Positions 4,553-54,625 are shown, counted from the first letter of the stretch. The stretch is DNA of 56,427 nucleotides from Patescibacteria group bacterium (GCA_038078615.1 JBBTWT010000001.1:1-56427); one strand, 5' to 3'. The notes: generated by a model not told the origin, from the letters alone. Made by a program: numbers and translations.

Positions 4553-7087
4553 TTATTTTGTCGTCGTATACAGGCCGATCCGCTGCCCCGGATTCACGAG
4601 CGGCGCGACTTCGTTCAGATAATCCATAACCGTCGCGTTCGGATTCTCCTTGAAAAAAGCCAGCCTGTCGAACCCGATATCGTTTTTTGACACGCCCTGG
4701 AAAAATTCCGCGAAGTTGGCTATCTGTTCCCTGTCGAGTCCGGTCGTATGCCCGGAAAAAGCTCCCTGCTGGAACAATCTGGCATCAGCCAGGATGTCCC
4801 GCAGCCTCACCTTGCCTATCGCTTCCTTGTCAATCAGCCAATCCTGACCGAAAGAGGCATTTTCCATCCGAAATATCTGCGCGTACCAGTCATCTGCTCG
4901 CTCACCATACAGCGCCATCATTTCTGGCAAGATCCCTCTGGGAGCAATCATCTCCTGACCGAATGTATTCCCCGGAGTTCCCGTTGCCGCCGGTATGCCG
5001 GAGTCAGCGTCCGCCGAGGCGGCATCGGCGGTTTCCGCCTGCAAGATATTATCCGCCACCTCGTTCGTGAGCGTGATATCCGGATTGGCCTGCGAATATG
5101 TCGCGAGCTTCGCATCATTTACAGAGATGCTCGCCATCTGTTCCGGCGAGAGCGCGTTCGCTTGCCCCAACGCCTTTTCCACGAAATCCTGATTGATGCC
5201 GTGTTCTGCAAAATTGATAGTTTCCCCCTCCTGCAACAAAACATCCCCGAACTGATTCTTTATGGCATTGACGAAATGCGTCCTTTGCGCGCCCTCCAGT
5301 CCCAGCTGATCCGCCAGCCTTCCGGAAATTTTCCATACCGAGTCCCCTTTTTGAACGACAGTGTCCTGATTGACAAAGCTACCGATAGCATCAGGCTGTA
5401 TGACACCGGCCTCTGTGTCCGGTGCGATCGGCGGTACGGGTGCTTGCTCTGCCGCTGTCTCAACGCCCGTGTCGACTGCCGCACCAGCCGTTTCTGCCGT
5501 ACTGTGCGGAAGAGACGGAGTATCAGATGCCGTTATCGTTTCGGGAACGGCTGCGGTATCCGAACCAGACACCATTTCGCCGAAACGCTCCTTGACCCAA
5601 TCCACCGCCTCATTACCGCCCCACTGGTTCATCGCGATCTCTGTCAGCCAGCCGGAACCGACAAAGGCGCCGACGGAGAGCGCTCCGGTCTTGTGCAGCA
5701 GCTTCGTCAGTTTCGCGTTCTGGAGCTTCTCGTCGGTCGCGAACACCTTTTTCTTCATCTCCGCATCAAGATGCATGAAGCCTCCTTCGGGAGTTTCCGT
5801 AAACAGTCTCTCGATTTCTTTTTCCGTCTCTTTGATCCGATGCTTTGCCCGAGAACTGTCGAGGAGCGCTTCCGTACCGACCGACATACCGGCGACTCCG
5901 AGGGCTTTCCGTACCCCCACGAGCACTCCGGCCAGGGTGCCGGTAGCCGCACCGCCGGACAGGGCAAGCGCGAGAGCTCCCCCGGCGCAGACCGCGGTGA
6001 TGGCCAATTTTTCCTTCATGGAAAGCTCATTGTATCTTCTCCCCAGGGCTCCGAATGAATCGAGGACTTTCGTCGGCCAGTTCTGCTTCCCCGCCCGGTA
6101 TTCGGTGCGGGCTTCGATGAGATTCACCGGCTCATCCAGATCGAAATACCGTATCATATCGGCCATTTCCTTCTTCCACCCCACCCCATCGCCCGCGCGC
6201 TGCCTGACCGATGCGAGCTGCGCATTCTTCAGATCAACCAGCTTGTTCTGATACTGCGCCTGCCAGTATACCCCATCGCTGTAGTTTCCCTTCTTATTGT
6301 ATTGTTTCTCCTGCCATTCCCGCTCACCTCCCGGAGAAAAAGACTTCCCAAAAAAATTCTTCACTCTCGCCCACGCGTTCGTCTCGTCATAATCCGCCTT
6401 CACATATCCCGCGCGCAGCTCATCCACCTCATTCTTCAGCCGGACGATTTCCAGATCAACCGTTTCTCCCTTTGGTCGTTCCGGAACAACGATCGCCGGT
6501 TCCGGCGTTATCTCTGCCGCATTGCTTATATTTTCTGGCATCACGACCTGTGCCGCTGCGACCGGCGGTACCGGTTTTTCCTGAACGCTCGCCGGCGCAT
6601 CTCCATCGCTCTCCACTATTTTTCGGGGAGCGAAGGGGTTTACTCTGTGGCCTTCATCGGCATCCTTGTTGTCCGGCGGGACCGCCTGAACAATAATAGG
6701 AACAGGAGGTGTCTCAACCACGACCGCCGATTTCACATCGACAATATGCGGCTTGGGTGTTCCGTCTTTTCCCCTCCCCCTGCGTCTGCGTCTGCCTGAG
6801 ATAGTCTGTTTCGGTTCCACTGCAACGGGTTTCTCAACGCCCGCGCTCACCGGCTCAACCGGAGGTTGCTGATCAACGTTCTCAACAACCGGCGCCATAA
6901 ATTTTTCGGCCTGCGCCGCAGCAGCAGAAGCCACCTGCGCCAAAAGCTCCGCAATCGGTACCTCGGGTTTTTGTGTCTCCGCTGCCCTGTCTCCTCCAGT
7001 GCCTGGCACACGCGCAGCATCAACTTTCTCCTGCGCTTGAGCACGGAGTCTGATAGCTTCTCGCTGCAATGATTCCTGCAGGTCCAT
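4553..7087 (-). CDS. Large membrane or secreted hypothetical protein with LysM-like segment
   Basis: The ORF extends to 7129 via a TTG; the first ATG (MDLQESL) is at 7087. It has an Ala/Pro/Val-rich N-terminal half, a hydrophobic stretch (LAITAVCAGGALALALSGGAATGTLAGVLVGV), and a LysM-like segment (VVQKGDSVWKISGRLADQLGL). Confidence 0.55.
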   Translation of the reverse strand: MDLQESLQREAIRLRAQAQEKVDAARVPGTGGDRAAETQKPEVPIAELLAQVASAAAAQAEKFMAPVVENVDQQPPVEPVSAGVEKPVAVEPKQTISGRRRRRGRGKDGTPKPHIVDVKSAVVVETPPVPIIVQAVPPDNKDADEGHRVNPFAPRKIVESDGDAPASVQEKPVPPVAAAQVVMPENISNAAEITPEPAIVVPERPKGETVDLEIVRLKNEVDELRAGYVKADYDETNAWARVKNFFGKSFSPGGEREWQEKQYNKKGNYSDGVYWQAQYQNKLVDLKNAQLASVRQRAGDGVGWKKEMADMIRYFDLDEPVNLIEARTEYRAGKQNWPTKVLDSFGALGRRYNELSMKEKLAITAVCAGGALALALSGGAATGTLAGVLVGVRKALGVAGMSVGTEALLDSSRAKHRIKETEKEIERLFTETPEGGFMHLDAEMKKKVFATDEKLQNAKLTKLLHKTGALSVGAFVGSGWLTEIAMNQWGGNEAVDWVKERFGEMVSGSDTAAVPETITASDTPSLPHSTAETAGAAVDTGVETAAEQAPVPPIAPDTEAGVIQPDAIGSFVNQDTVVQKGDSVWKISGRLADQLGLEGAQRTHFVNAIKNQFGDVLLQEGETINFAEHGINQDFVEKALGQANALSPEQMASISVNDAKLATYSQANPDITLTNEVADNILQAETADAASADADSGIPAATGTPGNTFGQEMIAPRGILPEMMALYGERADDWYAQIFRMENASFGQDWLIDKEAIGKVRLRDILADARLFQQGAFSGHTTGLDREQIANFAEFFQGVSKNDIGFDRLAFFKENPNATVMDYLNEVAPLVNPGQRIGLYTTTK

Positions 7088-18424: not shown

Positions 18425-18446
18425 TCAACTCATTCTCCCCCCCCCC

Positions 18447-18480: not shown

Positions 18481-19698
18481 TCATTTCCGGAGAATTGCTC
18501 CGATTTTCTCCGCACAGCTCTGCCAACTGAAACGCTCTGTATTCTTCAGCCCTTTTTCTATTATACCATCCCGGAGCGCCTTGTCCGAAAGCACTTTCTG
18601 CATGCCTTCTGCGATATTCTTAACACTGTAAGGATCAACAAACATCGCCCCACCGCCTGCCCGCAATACTATTTCGTCTGGCGGAATTGTAGGCGGGCCG
18701 GCCACTTCCGGCAGAGACGATGTGTTCGATGTCACCACCGGCACGCCGACCGACTGCGCCTCAAGCACCGGAATCCCGAATCCTTCATACAGTGTCGGAA
18801 ACGCAAACACATCCGCATTTTTCAGAAGCTCCCATTTCTCTTCTTCTGTCACATATCCCATTAAGAAAATGTCAAGCTTGTAGCTTGTAGCTTGTAGCTT
18901 GTAGCGAATTCTCCTTGCTCCAAAACCCCATTTTCCTGCAAGCACAAGTGTGTGCGGAATCTGATATTTCTCCTTGAGCATTTCAAACGCTTCTATAATC
19001 CTGACGATATTTTTTCGCTCCTCTAAACGTCCGATAAACAAAAGGTATGGTTTGGAAATTGGAAACCTGCCCGTCCGGCAGGCGGGTTGGAAATTGAGAT
19101 TTGCTTGGAAATTGGAAACCTGCCCGTCCGGCAGGCGGGTTGGAAATTGGAAATTGGTTTCATATCCTTCATACACCACGCGCGTCTTCTCCTCTGGCAC
19201 CCCGTAGAGACGCATCACATCCCGCTTCGTGTTTTCCGAGACACAGATGACCGTCGTCGCCGCACGGCACGAGAAACGGATGGAAGCGCGCATATACAGC
19301 CGCTCCCAGAATGAATATCCATCGGGACAGAATTCGTACTCCAAGCCGTGAATCGTTACGACGGTCTTGGCAGGATGGATGCTCGGCACGGTGTGCGCCG
19401 GAACGAACAGAACATCCGGCGGATGCAGCAGCATCTCGATTGATAACCCTACTTGCGTCCAGAAACGCGGCGCCCATATTCCGCGTACCCGCCAATGCTC
19501 CGGCAGTTCAAAGTCTATTTCCGGAATGACGACTTGTAACTTGTAACTTGTAACTTGTAACTTCTTCCGCACATACAAAACAACAGTGTCCGTTCCAGGG
19601 ATGACACTGCGCAGATGCTTGATCGTCTGATACGCATATTCCTCGATCCCTGTCCGCCGTTTCAGAAATGCCCGCGATGCATCGATACCTATTGTCAT
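18481..19698 (-). CDS. Glycosyltransferase family 4 carrying three in-frame repeat-derived segments
   Basis: GT4 motifs are present: KPYLLFIGRLEERKN and PTLYEGFGIPVLEAQSVGVPVV. The segments KLQVTSYKLQV, QVSNFQANLNFQPACRTGRFPIS and YKLQATSYKLD are encoded by tandem repeats. Confidence 0.75.
   Translation of the reverse strand: MTIGIDASRAFLKRRTGIEEYAYQTIKHLRSVIPGTDTVVLYVRKKLQVTSYKLQVVIPEIDFELPEHWRVRGIWAPRFWTQVGLSIEMLLHPPDVLFVPAHTVPSIHPAKTVVTIHGLEYEFCPDGYSFWERLYMRASIRFSCRAATTVICVSENTKRDVMRLYGVPEEKTRVVYEGYETNFQFPTRLPDGQVSNFQANLNFQPACRTGRFPISKPYLLFIGRLEERKNIVRIIEAFEMLKEKYQIPHTLVLAGKWGFGARRIRYKLQATSYKLDIFLMGYVTEEEKWELLKNADVFAFPTLYEGFGIPVLEAQSVGVPVVTSNTSSLPEVAGPPTIPPDEIVLRAGGGAMFVDPYSVKNIAEGMQKVLSDKALRDGIIEKGLKNTERFSWQSCAEKIGAILRK
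18875..18905. repeat. Heptanucleotide tandem repeat (AGCTTGT)x4.4 inside the GT4 ORF
   Basis: Read directly. It encodes YKLQATSYKL on the minus strand. Confidence 0.95.
19052..19157. repeat. Tandem duplication (period 53 nt) containing a GC-rich hairpin module, inside the GT4 ORF
   Basis: TTGGAAATTGGAAACCTGCCCGTCCGGCAGGCGGGTTGGAAATTG occurs at 19052-19096 and again at 19105-19149, followed by GAAATTGG. Confidence 0.9.
19532..19563. repeat. Heptanucleotide tandem repeat (ACTTGTA)x4.5 inside the GT4 ORF
   Basis: Read directly. It encodes KLQVTSYKLQV on the minus strand. Confidence 0.95.
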
Positions 19699-19703
19699 AG
19701 CTG

Positions 19704-19735
19704 GTAGCTTCTTAGCTTTTTAGCTGGTAGCTTCT
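19704..19735. repeat. Left arm of the inverted repeat flanking the four-helix-bundle gene
   Basis: GTAGCTTCTTAGCTT (19704-19718) is the exact reverse complement of 20131-20145. Similarity extends to about 31 nt with one indel and three mismatches. AGCT recurs every 7-8 nt. Confidence 0.8.
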
Positions 19736-20100
19736 GAAGAGAGCTTGTTAATCATCGCGTTTAACATACGCATTACTTCTCCAAGCAATGCTTCAACCTG
19801 AAAAAAATTCAAACCATTCCCAAGTGGCAATCGCTTGGAAATTTCAATCTGTGTTTCTAGCTCTGCACCCGATCCATATGCAAGCAAGAGAAAGTGACGG
19901 AAATCTTTTCTTGTGCCACGTCTACGCCCTTCTGCAATATTAGAGGGAATAGAGACAGCTGCTCGTCTCATCTGTGAAGTTAAGCCGTACAGTTCGCTTT
20001 TAGGATAATTTTCTGTAAGTTCATAAACCTTGGTTACAAGCTCTACAGATTTTTGCCACACGACTAATTCTTTATAAGAATGTATTGTATTCTGTGGCAT
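19720..20100 (-). CDS. Four-helix-bundle protein (23S rRNA intervening-sequence protein / Avd-related family)
   Basis: 126 aa. YKELVVWQKSVELVTKVYELTENYPKSELYGLTSQMRRAAVSIPSNIAEG is the characteristic signature of this family. Confidence 0.8.
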   Translation of the reverse strand: MPQNTIHSYKELVVWQKSVELVTKVYELTENYPKSELYGLTSQMRRAAVSIPSNIAEGRRRGTRKDFRHFLLLAYGSGAELETQIEISKRLPLGNGLNFFQVEALLGEVMRMLNAMINKLSSEATS

Positions 20101-22796: not shown

Positions 22797-23077
22797 ATCG
22801 TACCTCTTTTTCGAGAGGCGAAGACAAGAGAACTTGCCTTGTTTATGGTAAAACAAAGTTTTTTGTTTTGTGTTTTTGTGTTTGTATTTTTTAAAGAACC
22901 TGTTTCTGCCCCCAAGAGAAAAAGCTATGCTCTTACTCTGTATCACATAACTGACGACCGTCATTCAGGTGATACATTGATTTTTTCTCTCGGAAAAAGA
23001 AAAGCGGGCGATCCGCCTAGAGGAACCACCCGTTTCACAGCTTTATGTACCTAGTATAGCAAATTTTCACCCTCCCG

Positions 23078-24037
23078 TCAACCGCTGCCACTCAAATTCT
23101 TATCTTCGCCTTGTATCAGCTCGCGCAACTTCCACACCCACCTTCTTACTTTTCGATTCCGTGAATGTGAAAGTACACCAAGATAAGAATTTACAATACT
23201 TCCAAAAGTCTCTTCTGTTATCTTTCCTTTCCGAAAGTTTTTTCGAGCATCGCTTAATTTCCGTAATAAACGCCTCTTGGTAGTCATGCGGACGACCGTC
23301 CTGTGTGGCAAAATAACATAACCCAGAAAATCTATTCCCTGGTTGACTTTTCGGATTTCCACTTTGTAAGGATGCAGTACCAATAACAACTTTTCAGAAA
23401 CAAATAACCTGATTTTTACCAATGCCTCTTCAAGGAAAATCCGATTGCTGTGCACAATGACAAAATCATCAGAATAACGAAAGTAATGCCTTGCCTTCAA
23501 CGTATGTTTTGCAAACTGATCCAGCTCATTGAGATAAATATTCGCAAAAAGCTGACTGGTAACATTGCCGAGTGGCAACCCTTTTCCTTTTTCTTTCTCA
23601 AAACTTGCAAAAATAATATCAATCAGCCACAGCGTATCGTAATCAGTAACTTTTTTCCCGATGAGCTTGCGTAAAATTTCATGGTCTATCGAGTCAAAAA
23701 ACTTTCGTATATCACATTTCAGCGTATAGGCTGGAGCTCTCCAGTTTTTGCTTACCTTTCGGCACGCTGGCAAAAGACGCATCACACCGAAGTGGGTACC
23801 CTTGGAGCCGCGCGATGAATATGAATCATAAATAAAGTGCTCATCGAAAATCGTGTACAACACGCGAAAAATCGCTTGGTGCAAAACTCGATCGCGTACA
23901 CTGGCTTTGTGAATATGTCTCCGCTTCGGATCGGAAACATAAAAGTCCTCATAAAGGTCGTGTCTGTATACCTTGGAAACAAGCTCTTGATGCAATCGAA
24001 GAAGATTGTCTTCCAGCTGAAACTCAAAAAGAGCCAC
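23078..24037 (-). CDS. DGR-type reverse transcriptase
   Basis: 319 aa with a GTG start. The RT motifs LPLGNVTSQLFANIYLNELD and RYSDDFVIV are present, and it is adjacent to the TR/VR pair. Confidence 0.85.
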   Translation of the reverse strand: MALFEFQLEDNLLRLHQELVSKVYRHDLYEDFYVSDPKRRHIHKASVRDRVLHQAIFRVLYTIFDEHFIYDSYSSRGSKGTHFGVMRLLPACRKVSKNWRAPAYTLKCDIRKFFDSIDHEILRKLIGKKVTDYDTLWLIDIIFASFEKEKGKGLPLGNVTSQLFANIYLNELDQFAKHTLKARHYFRYSDDFVIVHSNRIFLEEALVKIRLFVSEKLLLVLHPYKVEIRKVNQGIDFLGYVILPHRTVVRMTTKRRLLRKLSDARKNFRKGKITEETFGSIVNSYLGVLSHSRNRKVRRWVWKLRELIQGEDKNLSGSG

Positions 24038-24134
24038 GTCGCTCTTTTTCTGCTTCCCCTTTCTGAACTCTTTCCATGCAGCCAGAAGATTTGCTACACT
24101 GACAATATTATGGAAAAGGCTTCCTCTAACGTTA

Positions 24135-24171
24135 CCCCCCCCCTCTCTCTCTCCCTCTCTCTCTCTCTCTC
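24135..24171. repeat. Simple-sequence tract C9 (TC)5 CC (TC)8
   Basis: Read directly. It lies in the divergent region between the RT start (24037) and the Avd-like ORF. Confidence 0.95.
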
Positions 24172-24182
24172 TTCGGAATAGT

Positions 24183-24530
24183 GATATTTCGATTGTTCAT
24201 AGTATCAAGAAGGTATATGCGACTCTCTACCAAATCGGAGGCAAAATTCCCAAGCGAGATAGGCTCGGTATTCACGGGCGCATCGAACATCTCGCACTTG
24301 AAACCATAGGCTATATCATTCGTGCTTCATTGGCACAAAAATATCAGAAACGGGAAATACTCGAACACGTACGCGTCTCTCTGGAAACTCTGAAACATCT
24401 GGTGCGTATAGAATATGAACACAATATCATCCCGGAAAAATCATATATCGAGATAGCCGCGCTGCTCATTGAAACTTCCAAAATGACCAATGGCTGGATC
24501 AAGTACCTGACACAAAGTCCCGCACTCTAG
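24183..24530 (+). CDS. Avd-like accessory variability determinant (four-helix bundle); no canonical start codon for the full-length domain
   Basis: The in-frame translation IKKVYATLYQIGGKIPKRDRLGIHGRIEHLALETIGYIIRASLAQKYQKREILEHVRVSLETLKHLVRIEYEHNIIPEKSYIEIAALLIETSKMTNGWIKYL has the Avd pattern (KxY...PKxxR...EiGkMlxgW). The frame is open from 24021, but the first ATG/GTG/TTG is the TTG at 24330. Confidence 0.6.
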   Translation, partial: DISIVHSIKKVYATLYQIGGKIPKRDRLGIHGRIEHLALETIGYIIRASLAQKYQKREILEHVRVSLETLKHLVRIEYEHNIIPEKSYIEIAALLIETSKMTNGWIKYLTQSPAL

Positions 24531-24549
24531 CGGGACGTTCCTGTGTTGA

Positions 24550-24672
24550 AACTTCTCGACGGACACCGCCATCGGGATGTGAATCGTCCAGATCGTACCA
24601 GTTCACGTTCACCTTGCGATTGTCCGGATTCCAGTTCACGTTCGGCACGTTGCCATCCGCATTACGAGAACC
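24550..24672 (-). repeat. DGR template repeat (TR)
   Basis: 123-nt ungapped match to 24996-25118. All 16 differences fall at TR adenines on the minus-strand sense. The region is rich in AAC codons. Confidence 0.85.
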
Positions 24673-24903
24673 TTCTCCCTTACTGTGAGCATCCATCTCT
24701 ATCACCGAACCTCTGTTGCCAGAGCATCTGTGTTCCTCGCGGTCGCGAGCGCTGTGCCGCATCATCTCCTACCGTGAAAAATCTATGCGCAAATACTCAC
24801 AGGCAGTTTCAATTCTTGGCAAACTATCATCCCACTCGGGTGAGACTAGCTTAACAGCCGATTTGTATTATACACCATTTTCTTGAACTTTTGAGAAGAA
24901 GAT

Positions 24904-24937
24904 AAAAAAAACCATATGCGTGCACGCACGCATATGG
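24904..24937 (-). terminator. Rho-independent terminator of the DGR target gene
   Basis: A 12-bp-arm palindrome CCATATGCGTGC..GCACGCATATGG (24912-24937) is followed on the minus strand by T8 (24911-24904). It lies 32 nt after the stop codon. Confidence 0.75.
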
Positions 24938-24968
24938 GGAAAAAGGGTAAAAGGCTCAAGTGTTGAGG

Positions 24969-25784
24969 TTAAGCTGCCAATTGTTTTGGCAGCGCAACTG
25001 CTCGACGGACACCGCCATCGGGATGCGAAGCGCCCAGATCGTACCAGCTCACGCCCACCCTGCGATCGGCCGGATGCCAGTACACGCCCGGCACGTAGCC
25101 ATCCGCATCACGAGAACCCGAGCACAACGTGATACCTTTCACATCGAGGTGTTGCTTGGTTTCGATAAAGTGTACTGCTCCGTGGACAAGTCGCTCGAGC
25201 ACCGTGACACCGATCAACTGATCCGGGTCGGCTTGACGAACCGATTGACCAAGAAACTCTTCATCGGCCTCCTGCTCATCACGCACCCAGAGGGCATAGG
25301 ACTCTGCTGATGTCCGGATGTTGCGTGTAATCACCGCATCCAGATCATCCGCGTACTGCCACAGTTTCCACCGTGGGTCATGCGCCACAAGGATGTTTCT
25401 GTACATTGCCGCTGAGTGATTCATCGTCAATCCTTTGAAGATGAAAATCAGACGCCGCTTGCCGACACTTGGTTTCTCGGGAATCAGCACCTCACTGAAG
25501 TCGGCTTCCATACCGAAATGAGTAAGGTAGATACCTTCCCAATAAGCCCGTCGGGCGGCATATCTGTCAGCAGTCACTACGAACACTTTGGAAAGTCCAT
25601 TTTTGACTTTTGTGGCCAGCATTTCCTTGCTCTGCAGTAAAGCCTTCCTTTCGCCAGAACTTAGGCTAAAGAAAAAGCGCGTGACAACTTCGGTGACTAC
25701 TGCCACTACGTAACCGAGTAAAATCCCCAACTGCTTCGCCTGTTGGGCAGTCGGTATCAATCGGTCTGTTCCATGATTTTTCAT
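24969..25784 (-). CDS. DGR variable (target) protein, N-terminal TM anchor, C-terminal variable region
   Basis: 271 aa from the ATG at 25784, with the RBS AGAGGA upstream; the ORF is open to 25856. It has a TM helix (LGILLGYVVAVVTEVVTRFFF). The C-terminus CSGSRDADGYVPGVYWHPADRRVGVSWYDLGASHPDGGVRR is the VR. Confidence 0.8.
   Translation of the reverse strand: MKNHGTDRLIPTAQQAKQLGILLGYVVAVVTEVVTRFFFSLSSGERKALLQSKEMLATKVKNGLSKVFVVTADRYAARRAYWEGIYLTHFGMEADFSEVLIPEKPSVGKRRLIFIFKGLTMNHSAAMYRNILVAHDPRWKLWQYADDLDAVITRNIRTSAESYALWVRDEQEADEEFLGQSVRQADPDQLIGVTVLERLVHGAVHFIETKQHLDVKGITLCSGSRDADGYVPGVYWHPADRRVGVSWYDLGASHPDGGVRRAVALPKQLAA
24973..24993 (-). other. Hairpin immediately 3' of VR (candidate DGR target-recognition stem-loop)
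   Basis: GCTGCCAA-ttgtt-TTGGCAGC. It is present next to VR but absent next to TR. Confidence 0.6.
24996..25118 (-). repeat. DGR variable repeat (VR)
   Basis: Counterpart of TR, forming the last ~41 codons before the terminal hairpin of the target ORF. Confidence 0.85.
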
Positions 25785-26030
25785 GGTTTGTTCCTCTTGG
25801 ATACACGCCAGCGGGCTCTCGGGTCTTCGAGTTTGCCATAGCCCAGTAAAATCCATACATCACATGGTAGTCAAAAATTACACGGGGCTATGGCAAAAGA
25901 CGCAAAAACGTATGTTTTTAATGAACTATACAGTGTACACCTGTTTCTTGATTTTGTCCAGAGCAAATCATGAAAAATGCTTTAAATAAAACATTTTTCT
26001 AGAAAGTAGTATCTTCTACAAGCTCATGCG

Positions 26031-26965: not shown

Positions 26966-28201
26966 TTAATTTTTCCCCCTATCCCGCATCGCCTGCGCCA
27001 CCCGCTCCACCGCTACCAGATATGCTCCCATACGCACTGATGTATTATACCGCTCTTTTTCATTCCAAACCGCATCGAACGCGGTCTCCATCTTCTCCTT
27101 CAGTCTGGCATTCACTTCCGCTTCTGTCCAGTAATAATTCATTGCGTTCTGCACCTGCTCGAAATACGAGACGGTCACGCCTCCGGCATTGGCCAAGATG
27201 TCCGGCACCACCGTAACACCCTTTTCGATCAGGATCTCTTCCGCTTCCGGTGTGACCGGGCCATTGGCGATCTCCACGATGAGTTTCGCCTGCACCTCAT
27301 GCGCATTGCCCTGATGAATCGCATTTTCGAGCGCTGCAGGAACGAGGATATCGGCCGGCACGGAAAGCACCGCTTCGCTCGGAAGCTTGTCGCATCCGAC
27401 GCACGTCTTCAGATCACCGGCGATGCGCTTGTGTTCGTCCACTGCTTTCACATCGAGCCCAACGCTATGGTACACCGTCGATTTCGAATCCGCTATGGCG
27501 ACTACCCTGTATCCGGCTGCGTCCAGCATACGCGCGAGATGTCCGCCACCGTTGCCGAACCCTTGGATCGCCACGGTTGCTTCTTTTCCGAGGTGCAGTT
27601 TAGCTGCAGCGCGCTCCAATATATAAAACGCTCCCTGGGCCGTCGCATACCCGCGCCCGAGCGACCCGCCGACTGAAACCGGCTTTCCAGTAATCACTCC
27701 AGTAGACTGCTCGCCGGAGAACATCTCGTATTCGTCGAGCATCCATCCCATAATGCGCGGATCTGTCGCAACGTCCGGTGCCGGCACATCGCGATTCTTG
27801 CCTATAATACATGCAATGGCTCGCATATATCCACGCGAGAGCATCTCCAACTCCCGATCGGACAATGGCTTCGTATCGACGATCACGCCGCCCTTGCCCC
27901 CACCGAGCGGGATGTCAACGACGGCCGTTTTCCAGGTCATCCACATCGAAAATGCCATCACTTCTTCGCGTGTCACGCTTTGATGAAAGCGTATGCCTCC
28001 TTTGTACGCCCCGCGAGCATTGTTGTGCTGCGACCGGTAACCGGCAAATACCCTCGTCGTGCCATCATCCATTCTGACCGGTATCGATACCTCGAGCACC
28101 CGATCCACATGGAGGAGCCGCTCGAAAATGTGCGGATTGATCTTGAGTATCGCCTGCATGTCCCGCAGCCGCTGTCGCTCTGATTCGAGAGGGTTGTCCA
28201 T
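26966..28201 (-). CDS. gdhA: Glutamate dehydrogenase (Glu/Leu/Phe/Val dehydrogenase family)
   Basis: It contains KGGIRFHQSVTREEVMAFSMWMTWKTAVVDIPLGGGKGGV. Confidence 0.85.
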   Translation of the reverse strand: MDNPLESERQRLRDMQAILKINPHIFERLLHVDRVLEVSIPVRMDDGTTRVFAGYRSQHNNARGAYKGGIRFHQSVTREEVMAFSMWMTWKTAVVDIPLGGGKGGVIVDTKPLSDRELEMLSRGYMRAIACIIGKNRDVPAPDVATDPRIMGWMLDEYEMFSGEQSTGVITGKPVSVGGSLGRGYATAQGAFYILERAAAKLHLGKEATVAIQGFGNGGGHLARMLDAAGYRVVAIADSKSTVYHSVGLDVKAVDEHKRIAGDLKTCVGCDKLPSEAVLSVPADILVPAALENAIHQGNAHEVQAKLIVEIANGPVTPEAEEILIEKGVTVVPDILANAGGVTVSYFEQVQNAMNYYWTEAEVNARLKEKMETAFDAVWNEKERYNTSVRMGAYLVAVERVAQAMRDRGKN

Positions 28202-54157: not shown

Positions 54158-54625
54158 CTACGCGAAGTGAGCGAAGGCCTTGTTGGCCTCGGCCATACGG
54201 TGCGTCTCTTCGCGTTTCTTCATGGCTGACCCGGTCTTGTTCGCGGCATCGAGGAGTTCGTCGGCGAGCTTCTCGGCCATGCCCTTGCCCTTGCGCTTGC
54301 GGCAGGCTTCGCGGATCCAGCGCATCGCGAGCACCTGACGACGCTCGCCGGACACCGGCACCGGCACCTGATAGTTGGCGCCGCCGACGCGGCGGGATTT
54401 CAGCTGGAGGAGCGGAGAGACGTTCTTGATGGCCTGCTCGAACGTGTTGACGCCGCCCTTCTTGGTGCGCTCATGGATAATATCGAACGCGTCATAGATG
54501 ATCCTTTCGGCGATGCTTTTCTTGCCATCCCACATGATCATCCCGACGAAGTGGCCGACCAGAGGATTGCCATACACGGCATCAGGCTTCCATTCGCGTG
54601 CGAATTGTCTCTTTCTTCGTGGCAT
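54158..54625 (-). CDS. rpsG: 30S ribosomal protein S7
   Basis: It begins MPRRKRQFAREWKPDAVYGNPLV and has the EANKAFAHF C-terminus. Confidence 0.95.
   Translation of the reverse strand: MPRRKRQFAREWKPDAVYGNPLVGHFVGMIMWDGKKSIAERIIYDAFDIIHERTKKGGVNTFEQAIKNVSPLLQLKSRRVGGANYQVPVPVSGERRQVLAMRWIREACRKRKGKGMAEKLADELLDAANKTGSAMKKREETHRMAEANKAFAHFA

Follow-up and report, generated by a model that had tools for sequence, protein, structure and literature searches.

The DNA analysed here (the window) is a stretch of 56,427 nucleotides from a Patescibacteria group bacterium (GCA_038078615.1, JBBTWT010000001.1:1-56427), and it carries a diversity-generating retroelement (DGR) at positions 23,078 to 25,784. 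The element comprises, in this order, a target gene carrying a variable repeat (VR), a terminator, a template repeat (TR), an avd gene on the opposite strand, and a gene for a reverse transcriptase (RT). As a DGR it belongs to a type known in the candidate phyla radiation (CPR). What stands out, and lay outside the description given in an earlier note on this DNA, is a conserved unstable homopolymer in the overlap between the 5′ ends of the RT and avd genes.

The retroelement and its relatives

TR and VR form a 123-nt ungapped direct repeat with an offset of 446 nt (the coordinates of all features are collected in Table 1). The earlier note had aligned the two repeats by hand, and the computed alignment gives the same outcome: 16/123 positions are mismatched, and every one of them falls on a minus-strand adenine of TR (hypergeometric P=3.1e-12). 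About 30 such adenines, roughly half of them substituted, had been estimated; 30 were counted, 16 of which are changed, with A>G at 10, A>C at 4, and A>T at 2 positions. By codon position 1/2/3 the substitutions are distributed 7/8/1, that is, 15/16 are found at positions 1 or 2. The placement of VR in the last ~41 residues of the target open reading frame (ORF) and of the TR adenines in AAC (x5) and AAT (x3) codons is likewise borne out, and GAT (x4) and GAC (x2) codons, among others, hold TR adenines as well. The 16th mismatch, at 25000 (A/C), lies beyond the GC-rich stretch that resembles an initiation of mutagenic homing (IMH) sequence, and may be a fixed difference between IMH and IMH* because it is common to a related locus, L001.

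The IMH-like 16-mer ends both repeats and a hairpin at 24973-24993 follows VR only, a combination that points to a DGR. Both had been described in the earlier note, to which it should be added that TR has a hairpin of its own close to its 3′ end, which may terminate avd, belong to the DGR RNA, or both. No further VR-like copy or target paralogue was found within the 56-kb window; a candidate second VR at 54344 was dropped, with a match of only 28 nt at 79% (E=0.055).

The 319-aa ORF at 23078-24037(-) matches Pfam RVT_1 (E=2e-18), and its closest solved relative is the 328-aa reverse transcriptase 8ub7_A (E=1.5e-40, residues 5-297 of the extended ORF), which we take to be the DGR RT of the Bordetella phage BPP-1, as its length fits. 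Other RT classes in the PDB give matches of 1.5e-18 (retron-type) and 2.5e-18 (group II), and the best NCBIfam match, a group II RT/maturase model, reaches 132 bits where 300 is the cutoff, NCBIfam having no DGR-RT model. The LPLGNVTSQ motif is invariant in the RT clade. By these comparisons the window RT is of the DGR type, as previously proposed, and not a group II intron or retron enzyme, but the 319-aa ORF is truncated at its N-terminus, because both the frame and the homology to 8ub7 run upstream of GTG 24037, up to the homopolymer; the homology begins at residue 5 of the extended ORF and residue 8 of the 8ub7 chain. The Avd-like ORF that had been seen beside TR is indeed Avd (Pfam bAvd, 43.5 bits, gathering score 40; NCBIfam DivGenRetAVD, E=1e-14, 54.7 bits, below the cutoff of 80), but it lies on the opposite (+) strand. 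With mismatches confined to TR adenines, a DGR-type RT, Avd, and a VR at the 3′ end of the target, the locus is almost certainly a genuine DGR.

That the element is active or recently active, as the earlier note held, is indirectly supported by its relatives, because those with an identical or near-identical TR carry VRs that differ almost only at TR-adenine sites. L001 is from a related genome, with ~82-88% DNA identity in the flanking genes. Its TR is 100% identical to that of the window, and the two VRs differ at 19 positions, 18 of them at TR adenines. The VR of L106 differs from its own TR at 24 positions, 24/24 at TR adenines, and the adenine-confined pattern is seen in nearly all relatives. 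Moreover, several bases of the L106 VR (1238-1360) were assembled as N, exactly at TR-adenine sites, and the L135 VR (383-500) has 17 N calls, all but one at TR adenines; evidently the assemblers met mixed bases, a direct sign of VR heterogeneity within each sample. These sequence comparisons support independent mutagenic homing in each lineage. The L001 VR also has one non-adenine change relative to TR, a G>A at position 6024 within the GC-rich IMH-like stretch, which turns CGTCGAG into CGTCAAG (Arg>Gln).

The nearest relatives of the target and RT come from metagenome-assembled genomes labelled Candidatus Moraniibacteriota, Moranbacteria, and other Patescibacteria, and the host chromosome is that of a Moranbacteria-like member of the Patescibacteria. 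The cassette is located between trxB and murA, and the same site is occupied in L001, L003, L005, and L106. The order of TR, reversed avd, and RT is the same in every relative with a detected Avd. According to Wu et al. 2018 (PMC5758913), "Architecture B3: TR-(avd)-RT" accounts for 90% of their CPR DGR set, and in the study of Roux et al. (bioRxiv 10.1101/2020.04.01.020958) the CPR lineage is significantly enriched in DGRs, the CPR elements constitute DGR clade 2, and their targets have no recognisable domains. The present element is of this known CPR architecture B3, equivalent to DGR clade 2, with which it shares the gene order, the reversed avd, the Patescibacteria host, the chromosomal, cellular location, and a target without recognisable domain. 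It also resembles the prototype DGR of BPP-1 (mtd-avd-TR-brt) in its adenine-specific TR-to-VR mutagenesis, GC-rich IMH-like end, hairpin 3′ of VR, possession of Avd and RT, VR at the target C-terminus, and an RT nearest in sequence to 8ub7. In contrast to the BPP-1 element, the element in the window is cellular and not phage-borne, its avd is inverted and downstream of TR, so that the region 3′ of TR is antisense avd, its target is not detectably Mtd-like, and expression of both DGR proteins would pass through a mutable homopolymer.

The homopolymer in the RT/avd overlap

The conserved N-termini of RT (SLFHNIVSVANLLAAWKEFRKGK) and Avd (DISIVHSIKKVYATLYQIGGKIPK) lie upstream of GTG 24037 and TTG 24330, respectively, and in the window no ATG, GTG, or TTG occurs between them and the C9 run/(CT)n tract. 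The only ATGs available to the two genes are across the G9 run and the adjoining (GA)n repeat, on the far side of the tract, and both are one base out of frame. The DGR that had been called complete is therefore assembled with an RT and an avd that have no canonical start in frame with their conserved N-termini. From ATG 24200 the RT frame reads MNNRNITIPKRERERGRERGGG and then meets TAA 24134-24132 directly after the homopolymer, and from ATG 24110 the Avd frame reads MEKASSNVTPPLSLSLSLSLSSE up to TAG 24179-24181. In-silico removal of one base from the run yields a 373-aa RT and a 139-aa Avd, whose proposed N-terminal extensions begin MNNRNIT... and MEKASSNV...; the two ATGs of the assembled window span 91 nt (24110-24200). 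The (GA)n repeat is a second slippage-prone repeat in the overlap; a 20-nt gap stands opposite it in the alignment with the L001 junction, it is absent in L106, and its long form is found only in the window.

An assembly chimera at the CT/poly-C tract was rejected as an explanation, the junction being syntenic in >80 contigs. The idea that poly-G serves as a Shine-Dalgarno sequence for a near-side start was dropped, since neither the window nor most relatives have a start codon close enough. Apart from the tract, the 56-kb window has just one long G/C homopolymer, an intergenic C10 at 18437-18446, downstream of a glycosyltransferase gene, and it is directly followed by a perfect hairpin with a 12-bp stem (GAAGCGGTTCAC...GTGAACCGCTTC).

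Related loci were gathered through the target family (10 distinct loci), by RT homology alone in genomes (80), and from metagenomes (80 more). Among these, 163 were usable, and the analyses of frames and starts were made on the 78 tract-bearing loci with both genes. Avd is head-to-head with RT wherever it was detected (145/163 usable loci). A run of G7-G12 is present at exactly the homologous position in 89/163 loci and no homopolymer is found there in 74/163, and these contigs have few other G/C runs of ≥7 nt (10 in 546 kb). A neighbour-joining RT tree, which is midpoint rooted and therefore no more than indicative, places the tract-less loci in what is essentially one nested clade, with the tract-bearing loci as the rest. 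The tract-less clade has canonical, in-frame, back-to-back starts ~5 codons upstream of each conserved N-terminus; near-side starts are missing for RT in 57/78 and for Avd in 48/78 of the tract-bearing loci. In a few tract-less loci, G/C runs 9-10 nt long are found at other places, close to TR or avd (L079 3118, L046 2651, and L161 1484).

An ATG on the far side with an open frame is found on the predicted codon grid in 67/78 loci for RT, compared with 26/156 in the other two frames (p=2e-25), and in 72/78 loci for Avd, compared with 11/156 (p=9e-41). In tract-bearing loci, the ATG of each gene is the antisense of an in-frame His codon (CAT) of its partner, and the CAT:CAC ratio in the overlap zone is 79:4 for RT, vs 580:317 elsewhere in the gene (p=2e-10), and 68:7 for Avd, vs 92:62 elsewhere (p=6e-7). 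The 5′-to-5′ overlap, with a median of 61 nt among relatives, and the ATG-antisense-His geometry together mean that one tract length sets both reading frames. In L031, a locus nested in the tract clade, the run is replaced by GGA GGT GGC (GGAGGTGGC) and both far-side ATGs are in frame, giving RT MNNRQISEGGGHSLYSKVISLKNLF... and Avd MATSLTDLPIVHKI..., which makes this locus a naturally occurring version locked in frame. The enrichment of far-side ATGs with open frames, the enrichment of CAT codons, and the in-frame L031 variant support the placement of the tract inside the coding sequences of both RT and avd, and we infer that the far-side ATGs are the real starts of the two proteins. The simple two-ATG model does not fit three tract-bearing loci of atypical geometry (L099, L100, and L095), in which stop codons separate the tract from the RT N-terminus or which fall in the tract-less clade of the tree.

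A sigma-70 consensus scan reported no promoter at the avd/RT junction of the window, and the -10-like boxes listed for it in Table 1 come from a position-specific count. Among the relatives, a TATAAT-like hexamer precedes the RT ATG, most often ending 11 nt upstream (35/67 score ≥5/6, vs 7% of control positions), and a weaker box, TAnACT-like, is found 6-13 nt upstream of the Avd ATG. A Shine-Dalgarno-like motif is found upstream of the far-side ATG in 0/67 loci for RT and 1/72 for Avd. This arrangement suggests that the RT and avd mRNAs could be near-leaderless, with promoters embedded in the partner gene, and the tract would lie downstream of the likely transcription start sites because the -10-like boxes precede the far-side ATGs.

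It could be argued instead that the tract is non-coding, a spacer or an element of the 5′-untranslated region, and that the genes start on its near side, either non-canonically, at a GTG or TTG, or at GTG 24037 and TTG 24330; its length would then matter, if at all, for transcription only. Gene callers do annotate the short ORFs (the 319-aa RT, and a 74-aa Avd in L001), a near-side GTG or TTG for Avd is available in 30/78 loci and a near-side RT start in 21/78, and the roughly mixed frame states are what is expected of a non-coding spacer. Nevertheless, we consider this quite improbable, since conserved N-terminal residues, homologous to 8ub7 from chain residue 8, are encoded upstream of GTG 24037, and neither gene of the window has a start on the near side. 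In addition, the roughly five- to thirteen-fold enrichment of far-side open-frame ATGs on the predicted grid, the almost exclusive use of CAT in the overlap zone, the Gly codons and frame retained by L031 where the run is broken, the non-uniform frame states (chi-square p=0.0012), and the -10-like boxes upstream of the far-side ATGs all argue for a coding tract.

The length of the tract differs between close relatives. L134 and L135 are identical over 2438 nt save for one G in the run (G9 vs G10) and the VR sites, and the window, L001, and L106, with RT DNA 90-94% identical, carry G9, G10, and G7, respectively. Variation within species is represented by these two sets, because L106 (89%) was the only close relative of the window RT to come out of the one metagenome scan. 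Both genes are in frame in 16 of the 78 loci, below one third (p=0.009), 41 need the loss of 1 nt, which is the state of the window, and 21 need the gain of 1 nt. The genes in out-of-frame loci are intact (59/62 for RT, 61/62 for Avd), and A-mismatches between TR and VR have a median of 18-19 there, with ≤1 other mismatch, the same as in in-frame and tract-less loci. A repeat within the 5′ coding region, a length that differs between near-identical genomes, and a frame that is moved while the gene stays intact are the marks of a contingency locus, and all three are found here.

The same data bear on whether the DGR of the window is a recently inactivated remnant, or its tract length an artefact of assembly or sequencing. 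Poly-G runs are error-prone in sequencing, and both genes are out of frame in the window and its nearest relatives, as such a remnant or artefact would have it. However, 89 contigs, which come from numerous independent studies and assemblers, have the tract in the same place, the out-of-frame loci keep intact genes and normal TR/VR pairs, and VRs differ between strains with the same TR, and the chance of decay or error appears to be very small. The non-coding-spacer, decay, and artefact readings are all disfavoured.

Possible control of the two DGR proteins

The explanation that we prefer, with a probability of roughly 0.6, is that the locus is a CPR-type DGR in which slippage at the tract switches RT and Avd together. 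Translation of both DGR proteins would have to pass through the slippage-prone homopolymer, with the (GA)n repeat in addition in the window, and tract length would gate the two together. The tract of the window would be one base too long, and the loss of 1 nt or the gain of one GA unit would result in the 373-aa RT and the 139-aa Avd. Slipped-strand mispairing at the tract could thereby turn both proteins, and hence hypermutation, heritably on or off, and slippage at the RNA or ribosome level could provide low background expression. Within the C-terminal ~40 residues of the 271-aa target, the DGR would rewrite 15-16 positions templated by adenines. Both the control of expression by the tract and the level at which it acts are what we infer from the assembled sequences. 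That the tract gates the expression of RT and Avd is quite probable, and for heritable switching as its main mode the odds are about even, from a little below to somewhat better. More tentatively, and with odds a little short of even, the two-strand G:C homopolymer in approximately half of the CPR DGR clade could be a single heritable slipped-strand switch, by which hypermutation would be phase-variable, bet-hedged, and off in the majority of cells in most populations.

Heritable slipped-strand switching is favoured because otherwise identical contigs differ in tract length, three frame states exist, and a locked variant exists. Room is left for programmed +1 recoding or transcriptional slippage, be it as a contributor or as the alternative, by the excess of the -1 state, the stop after the run, and the VR heterogeneity at an out-of-frame consensus. 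In such recoding, the run would be a slippery site at which polymerase slippage or a +1 ribosomal shift (GGG-G in RT, CCC-C in Avd) brings a small, constant share of the product back into frame, giving low RT and Avd whatever the length of the tract in the DNA. The 41/78 loci that share the window's state need the same -1 nt, equivalent to a +1 ribosomal shift, and exceed one third (p=0.0004), and an RT zero-frame stop follows the run by 0-9 nt in 29/36 loci in this state. The window reads GGG TAA C, which resembles the prfB shift site with its upstream Shine-Dalgarno-like G-rich element. As in prfB +1 frameshifting and transcriptional slippage, the run is slippery; in the window a zero-frame stop comes directly behind it, and most relatives need the same +1 correction. 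On the other hand, all three frame states are present (16/41/21) where recoding would have one shift in common, and the required shift varies even between otherwise identical contigs, L134 needing -1 and L135 +1. The different run lengths of the window, L001, and L106 and the locked in-frame L031 also speak against recoding, both strands would need it, and no conserved downstream stimulator was found, nor was a search aimed at one made. Taken as a whole, programmed recoding in place of a heritable switch is an unlikely account of the tract. Transcriptional slippage on homopolymers and programmed frameshifting are reviewed in PMC5009743.

Several observations weigh against the switch that we propose. 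The excess of the -1 state and the stops after the run fit programmed +1 recoding as well as or better than random switching, and both samples with VR heterogeneity (L135 and L106) have a consensus tract that is out of frame. In the 30 loci that have a near-side GTG or TTG, Avd translation could begin there, with no need to cross the tract. Conservation of the -10-like boxes is inseparable from the constraint on the partner protein, as these hexamers also encode conserved residues. Moreover, the two genes are coupled automatically by the ATG/CAT geometry, and the coupling is not independent evidence. Finally, tract lengths come from consensus assemblies, a few of them perhaps long-read based, and any mixing of tract lengths in populations, like the starts of transcription and translation, is predicted from assembled sequence.

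The proposed switch has counterparts in other bacteria. Phase-variable poly-G tracts are also present in Campylobacter genes, and in the hifA/hifB fimbrial switch of Haemophilus influenzae, a (TA)n repeat in overlapping divergent promoters changes the -35/-10 spacing and controls transcription. In both the hifA/hifB switch and the present case, one simple-sequence repeat between two divergent genes would co-regulate both. However, the repeat in the window lies within the coding sequence of each gene and downstream of the putative -10 boxes, and control would therefore be translational, via the reading frame. Homopolymeric-tract phase variation, for example by poly-G in Neisseria hmbR/hpuAB (PMC3786947), has in common with the window a run of 7-12 G/C nucleotides close to the 5′ end of the coding sequence, a length that differs between otherwise identical sequences, and an ON/OFF state set by the length modulo 3; simple-repeat contingency loci are surveyed more generally in PMC2831843. 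The tract in the window differs from these in that it is read on both strands and would gate two divergent, overlapping genes, which encode a mutagenesis machine and not a surface structure, and in that it occurs in Patescibacteria, where its switching within a population is proposed.

Compared to CPR architecture B3 and clade 2 as published, the homopolymer, the 5′-5′ overlapping starts, and the frame states are distinguishing features of about half of the clade studied here, and the copy in the window has the (GA)n expansion in addition. None of these three features is mentioned by Wu et al. 2018 (PMC5758913) or in the preprint of Roux et al., and in the full-text literature, in a search that excluded Paul et al. 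2017 (Nat Microbiol), no paper was found that links DGRs with homopolymers, frameshift, phase variation, or slippage.

The restraint and timing of DGR mutagenesis in cells are largely unknown, and a tract that gates both essential proteins would, if the gating is true, provide a simple built-in on/off control or throttle and make targeted protein hypermutation itself switchable. For annotation, gene callers truncate RT and Avd in tract-bearing DGRs, and DGR finders may score these elements as incomplete. Anyone reconstituting such an element, as has been done for another DGR (PMC12875486), may find the native sequence "off", and variants with GGA GGT GGC, as in L031, would be "locked on". In ecological work, DGR activity in situ could be read from the proportions of tract states among metagenomic reads. 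The use of one homopolymer on two strands by two genes, with start codons antisense of the partner's His codons, is also an unusual form of overlapping coding.

Target protein, cassette history, and other features

The target belongs to a family of at least 177 database sequences, none of which has a Pfam domain and all of which, where a source is named, come from Patescibacteria. The family alignment has the scaffold T-x-C-S-G-S-R...G-x-V-P-x-V-x-W...V-x-V-x-W...G-V-R-R-A-V, and hypervariable positions at TR-adenine codons interleave with it. An AlphaFold2 model built with 106 sequences (predicted local distance difference test score, pLDDT, 92.7) predicts four N-terminal helices followed by an alpha/beta domain, with VR as the last four strands. 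A Foldseek search of the model against the PDB and BFVD gave no match at E≤0.001, and PDB sequences searched with a target profile yielded nothing. Weak local Foldseek matches (E 2.7-6.1) were to proteins known from DGRs or of the C-type lectin (CLec) fold, namely TvpA (2y3c), Mtd (1yu1/1yu3/1yu4), and FGE (2q17/6muj/1y1h), those to TvpA and FGE covering 39-79 aligned columns, and the target is possibly a divergent display surface of the CLec-like kind. The membrane anchoring that the earlier note ascribed to the target is unsupported, because its N-terminal helix, with a Kyte-Doolittle (KD) value of 1.9, always has charged residues and is not hydrophobic in distant family members (KD 0.7-1.4). 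AlphaFold2 models it with high confidence as the first of the four N-terminal helices.

In 13/24 target-family loci, neither RT nor Avd was detected in the locus DNA, with flanks of ≤5 kb where the contig allowed; loci of this kind are among or around L004, L005, L007-L010, L013, and L016-L022. In addition, CAVSGX010000007.1 (L008 and L012) has two members of the target family ~10 kb apart and a single DGR. Target genes without a nearby RT or Avd may be remote or multiple targets, or non-diversified paralogues.

The cassette DNA (22800-26000) is 91-100% identical to that of L001, and 96-100% identical over 24400-25600 outside VR, with ~78-88% DNA identity in the flanking trxB, murA, glycosyltransferase, and upstream genes. 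As had been observed before, the cassette is also more AT-rich than its surroundings (GC content 0.42-0.50 vs ~0.52-0.60). The identity above that of the flanks and the lower GC content suggest that the cassette was recently recombined or transferred between lineages at a conserved site. Within the otherwise 100% identical target sequence, a patch at ~25590-25710 (target codons ~25-65) has ~70-80% identity to L001, which would point to mosaicism or recombination within the helical N-terminal part. The gdh gene (26966-28201) is absent from L001.

Further signals are listed in Table 1. The TATAAT hexamer is a candidate -10 box of the TR transcript, with a weak -35, and the promoter scan did not report it. 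Whole-window scans with Rfam, at gathering thresholds, and for tRNA genes gave no matches.

Table 1. Features of the retroelement, with positions counted from the first letter of the window
Feature	Position	Strand	Remarks
Terminator-like hairpin	23005-23032	(-)	After RT stop
RT coding region, near side of tract	23078-24134	(-)	Conserved N-terminal segment SLFHNIVSVANLLAAWKEFRKGK upstream of annotated GTG 24037
TACACT, -10-like hexamer	24095-24100	(+)	9 nt upstream of avd ATG, within RT coding sequence; commonest hexamer there among relatives, modest enrichment
Proposed avd start ATG, far side of tract	24110-24112	(+)	Antisense of in-frame RT His codon (..LFH..)
G:C homopolymer (C9 on +, G9 on RT strand)	24135-24143	both	Inside RT/avd 5′-5′ overlap; GGG in RT, PPP in Avd
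Imperfect (CT)n/(GA)n dinucleotide repeat	24144-24172	both	Adjoins homopolymer; repeat finder gives 24143-24172, 15 copies
avd coding region, near side of tract	24180-24530	(+)	Conserved Avd frame, stop 24528-24530; no ATG/GTG/TTG before TTG 24330
Proposed RT start ATG, far side of tract	24198-24200	(-)	Antisense of in-frame Avd His codon (..IVH..)
TATACC, -10-like hexamer	24212-24217	(-)	Ends 11 nt upstream of RT ATG, within avd coding sequence
GC-rich hairpin	24517-24536	(-)	14 nt 3′ of TR, across avd stop codon (other strand); -10.8 kcal/mol, z=-3.0
Template repeat (TR)	24550-24672	(-)	Repeat alignment; 100% identical in L001
Perfect TATAAT hexamer	24867-24872	(-)	~195 nt upstream of TR; read from sequence; identical in L001
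Intrinsic-terminator-like hairpin (24912-24937), then T8	24904-24937	(-)	Between target stop and TR; -11.7 kcal/mol, z=-8.7; 100% conserved in L001
Target gene, 271 aa	24969-25784	(-)	ATG 25784 preceded by AGAGGA; upstream in-frame ATG 25856 would give 295 aa
Hairpin, 8-bp stem and 5-nt loop	24973-24993	(-)	Directly 3′ of VR, within last 8 target codons; -9.5 kcal/mol, z=-3.5
Variable repeat (VR)	24996-25118	(-)	Encodes last ~41 residues of target
GC-rich IMH-like stretch GGCGGTGTCCGTCGAG	25001-25016	(-)	3′ end of VR; identical copy in TR at 24555-24570

In the neighbourhood of the cassette, the glycosyltransferase ORF at 18481-19698(-) contains two heptanucleotide arrays, AGCTTGT x4.4 and ACTTGTA x4.6, and two copies of a ~28-nt GC-rich palindromic insert (CCCGCCTGCCGGACGGGCAGG) within a low-complexity, FQ-rich segment; the repeats and inserts are found especially at 18875-18905, 19059-19146, and 19532-19563. 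L001 lacks the palindromic inserts and does not conserve the first heptamer array. The heptanucleotide repeats were considered as a second switch and dropped, as they are not kept as perfect repeats in L001. Approximately 4 kb from the DGR, 19720-20100(-) encodes a 126-aa four-helix-bundle protein (NCBIfam TIGR02436, E=6.5e-35), which also has a weak match to the DGR Avd model (E=2.8e-4) and constitutes a second, stand-alone Avd-like gene.

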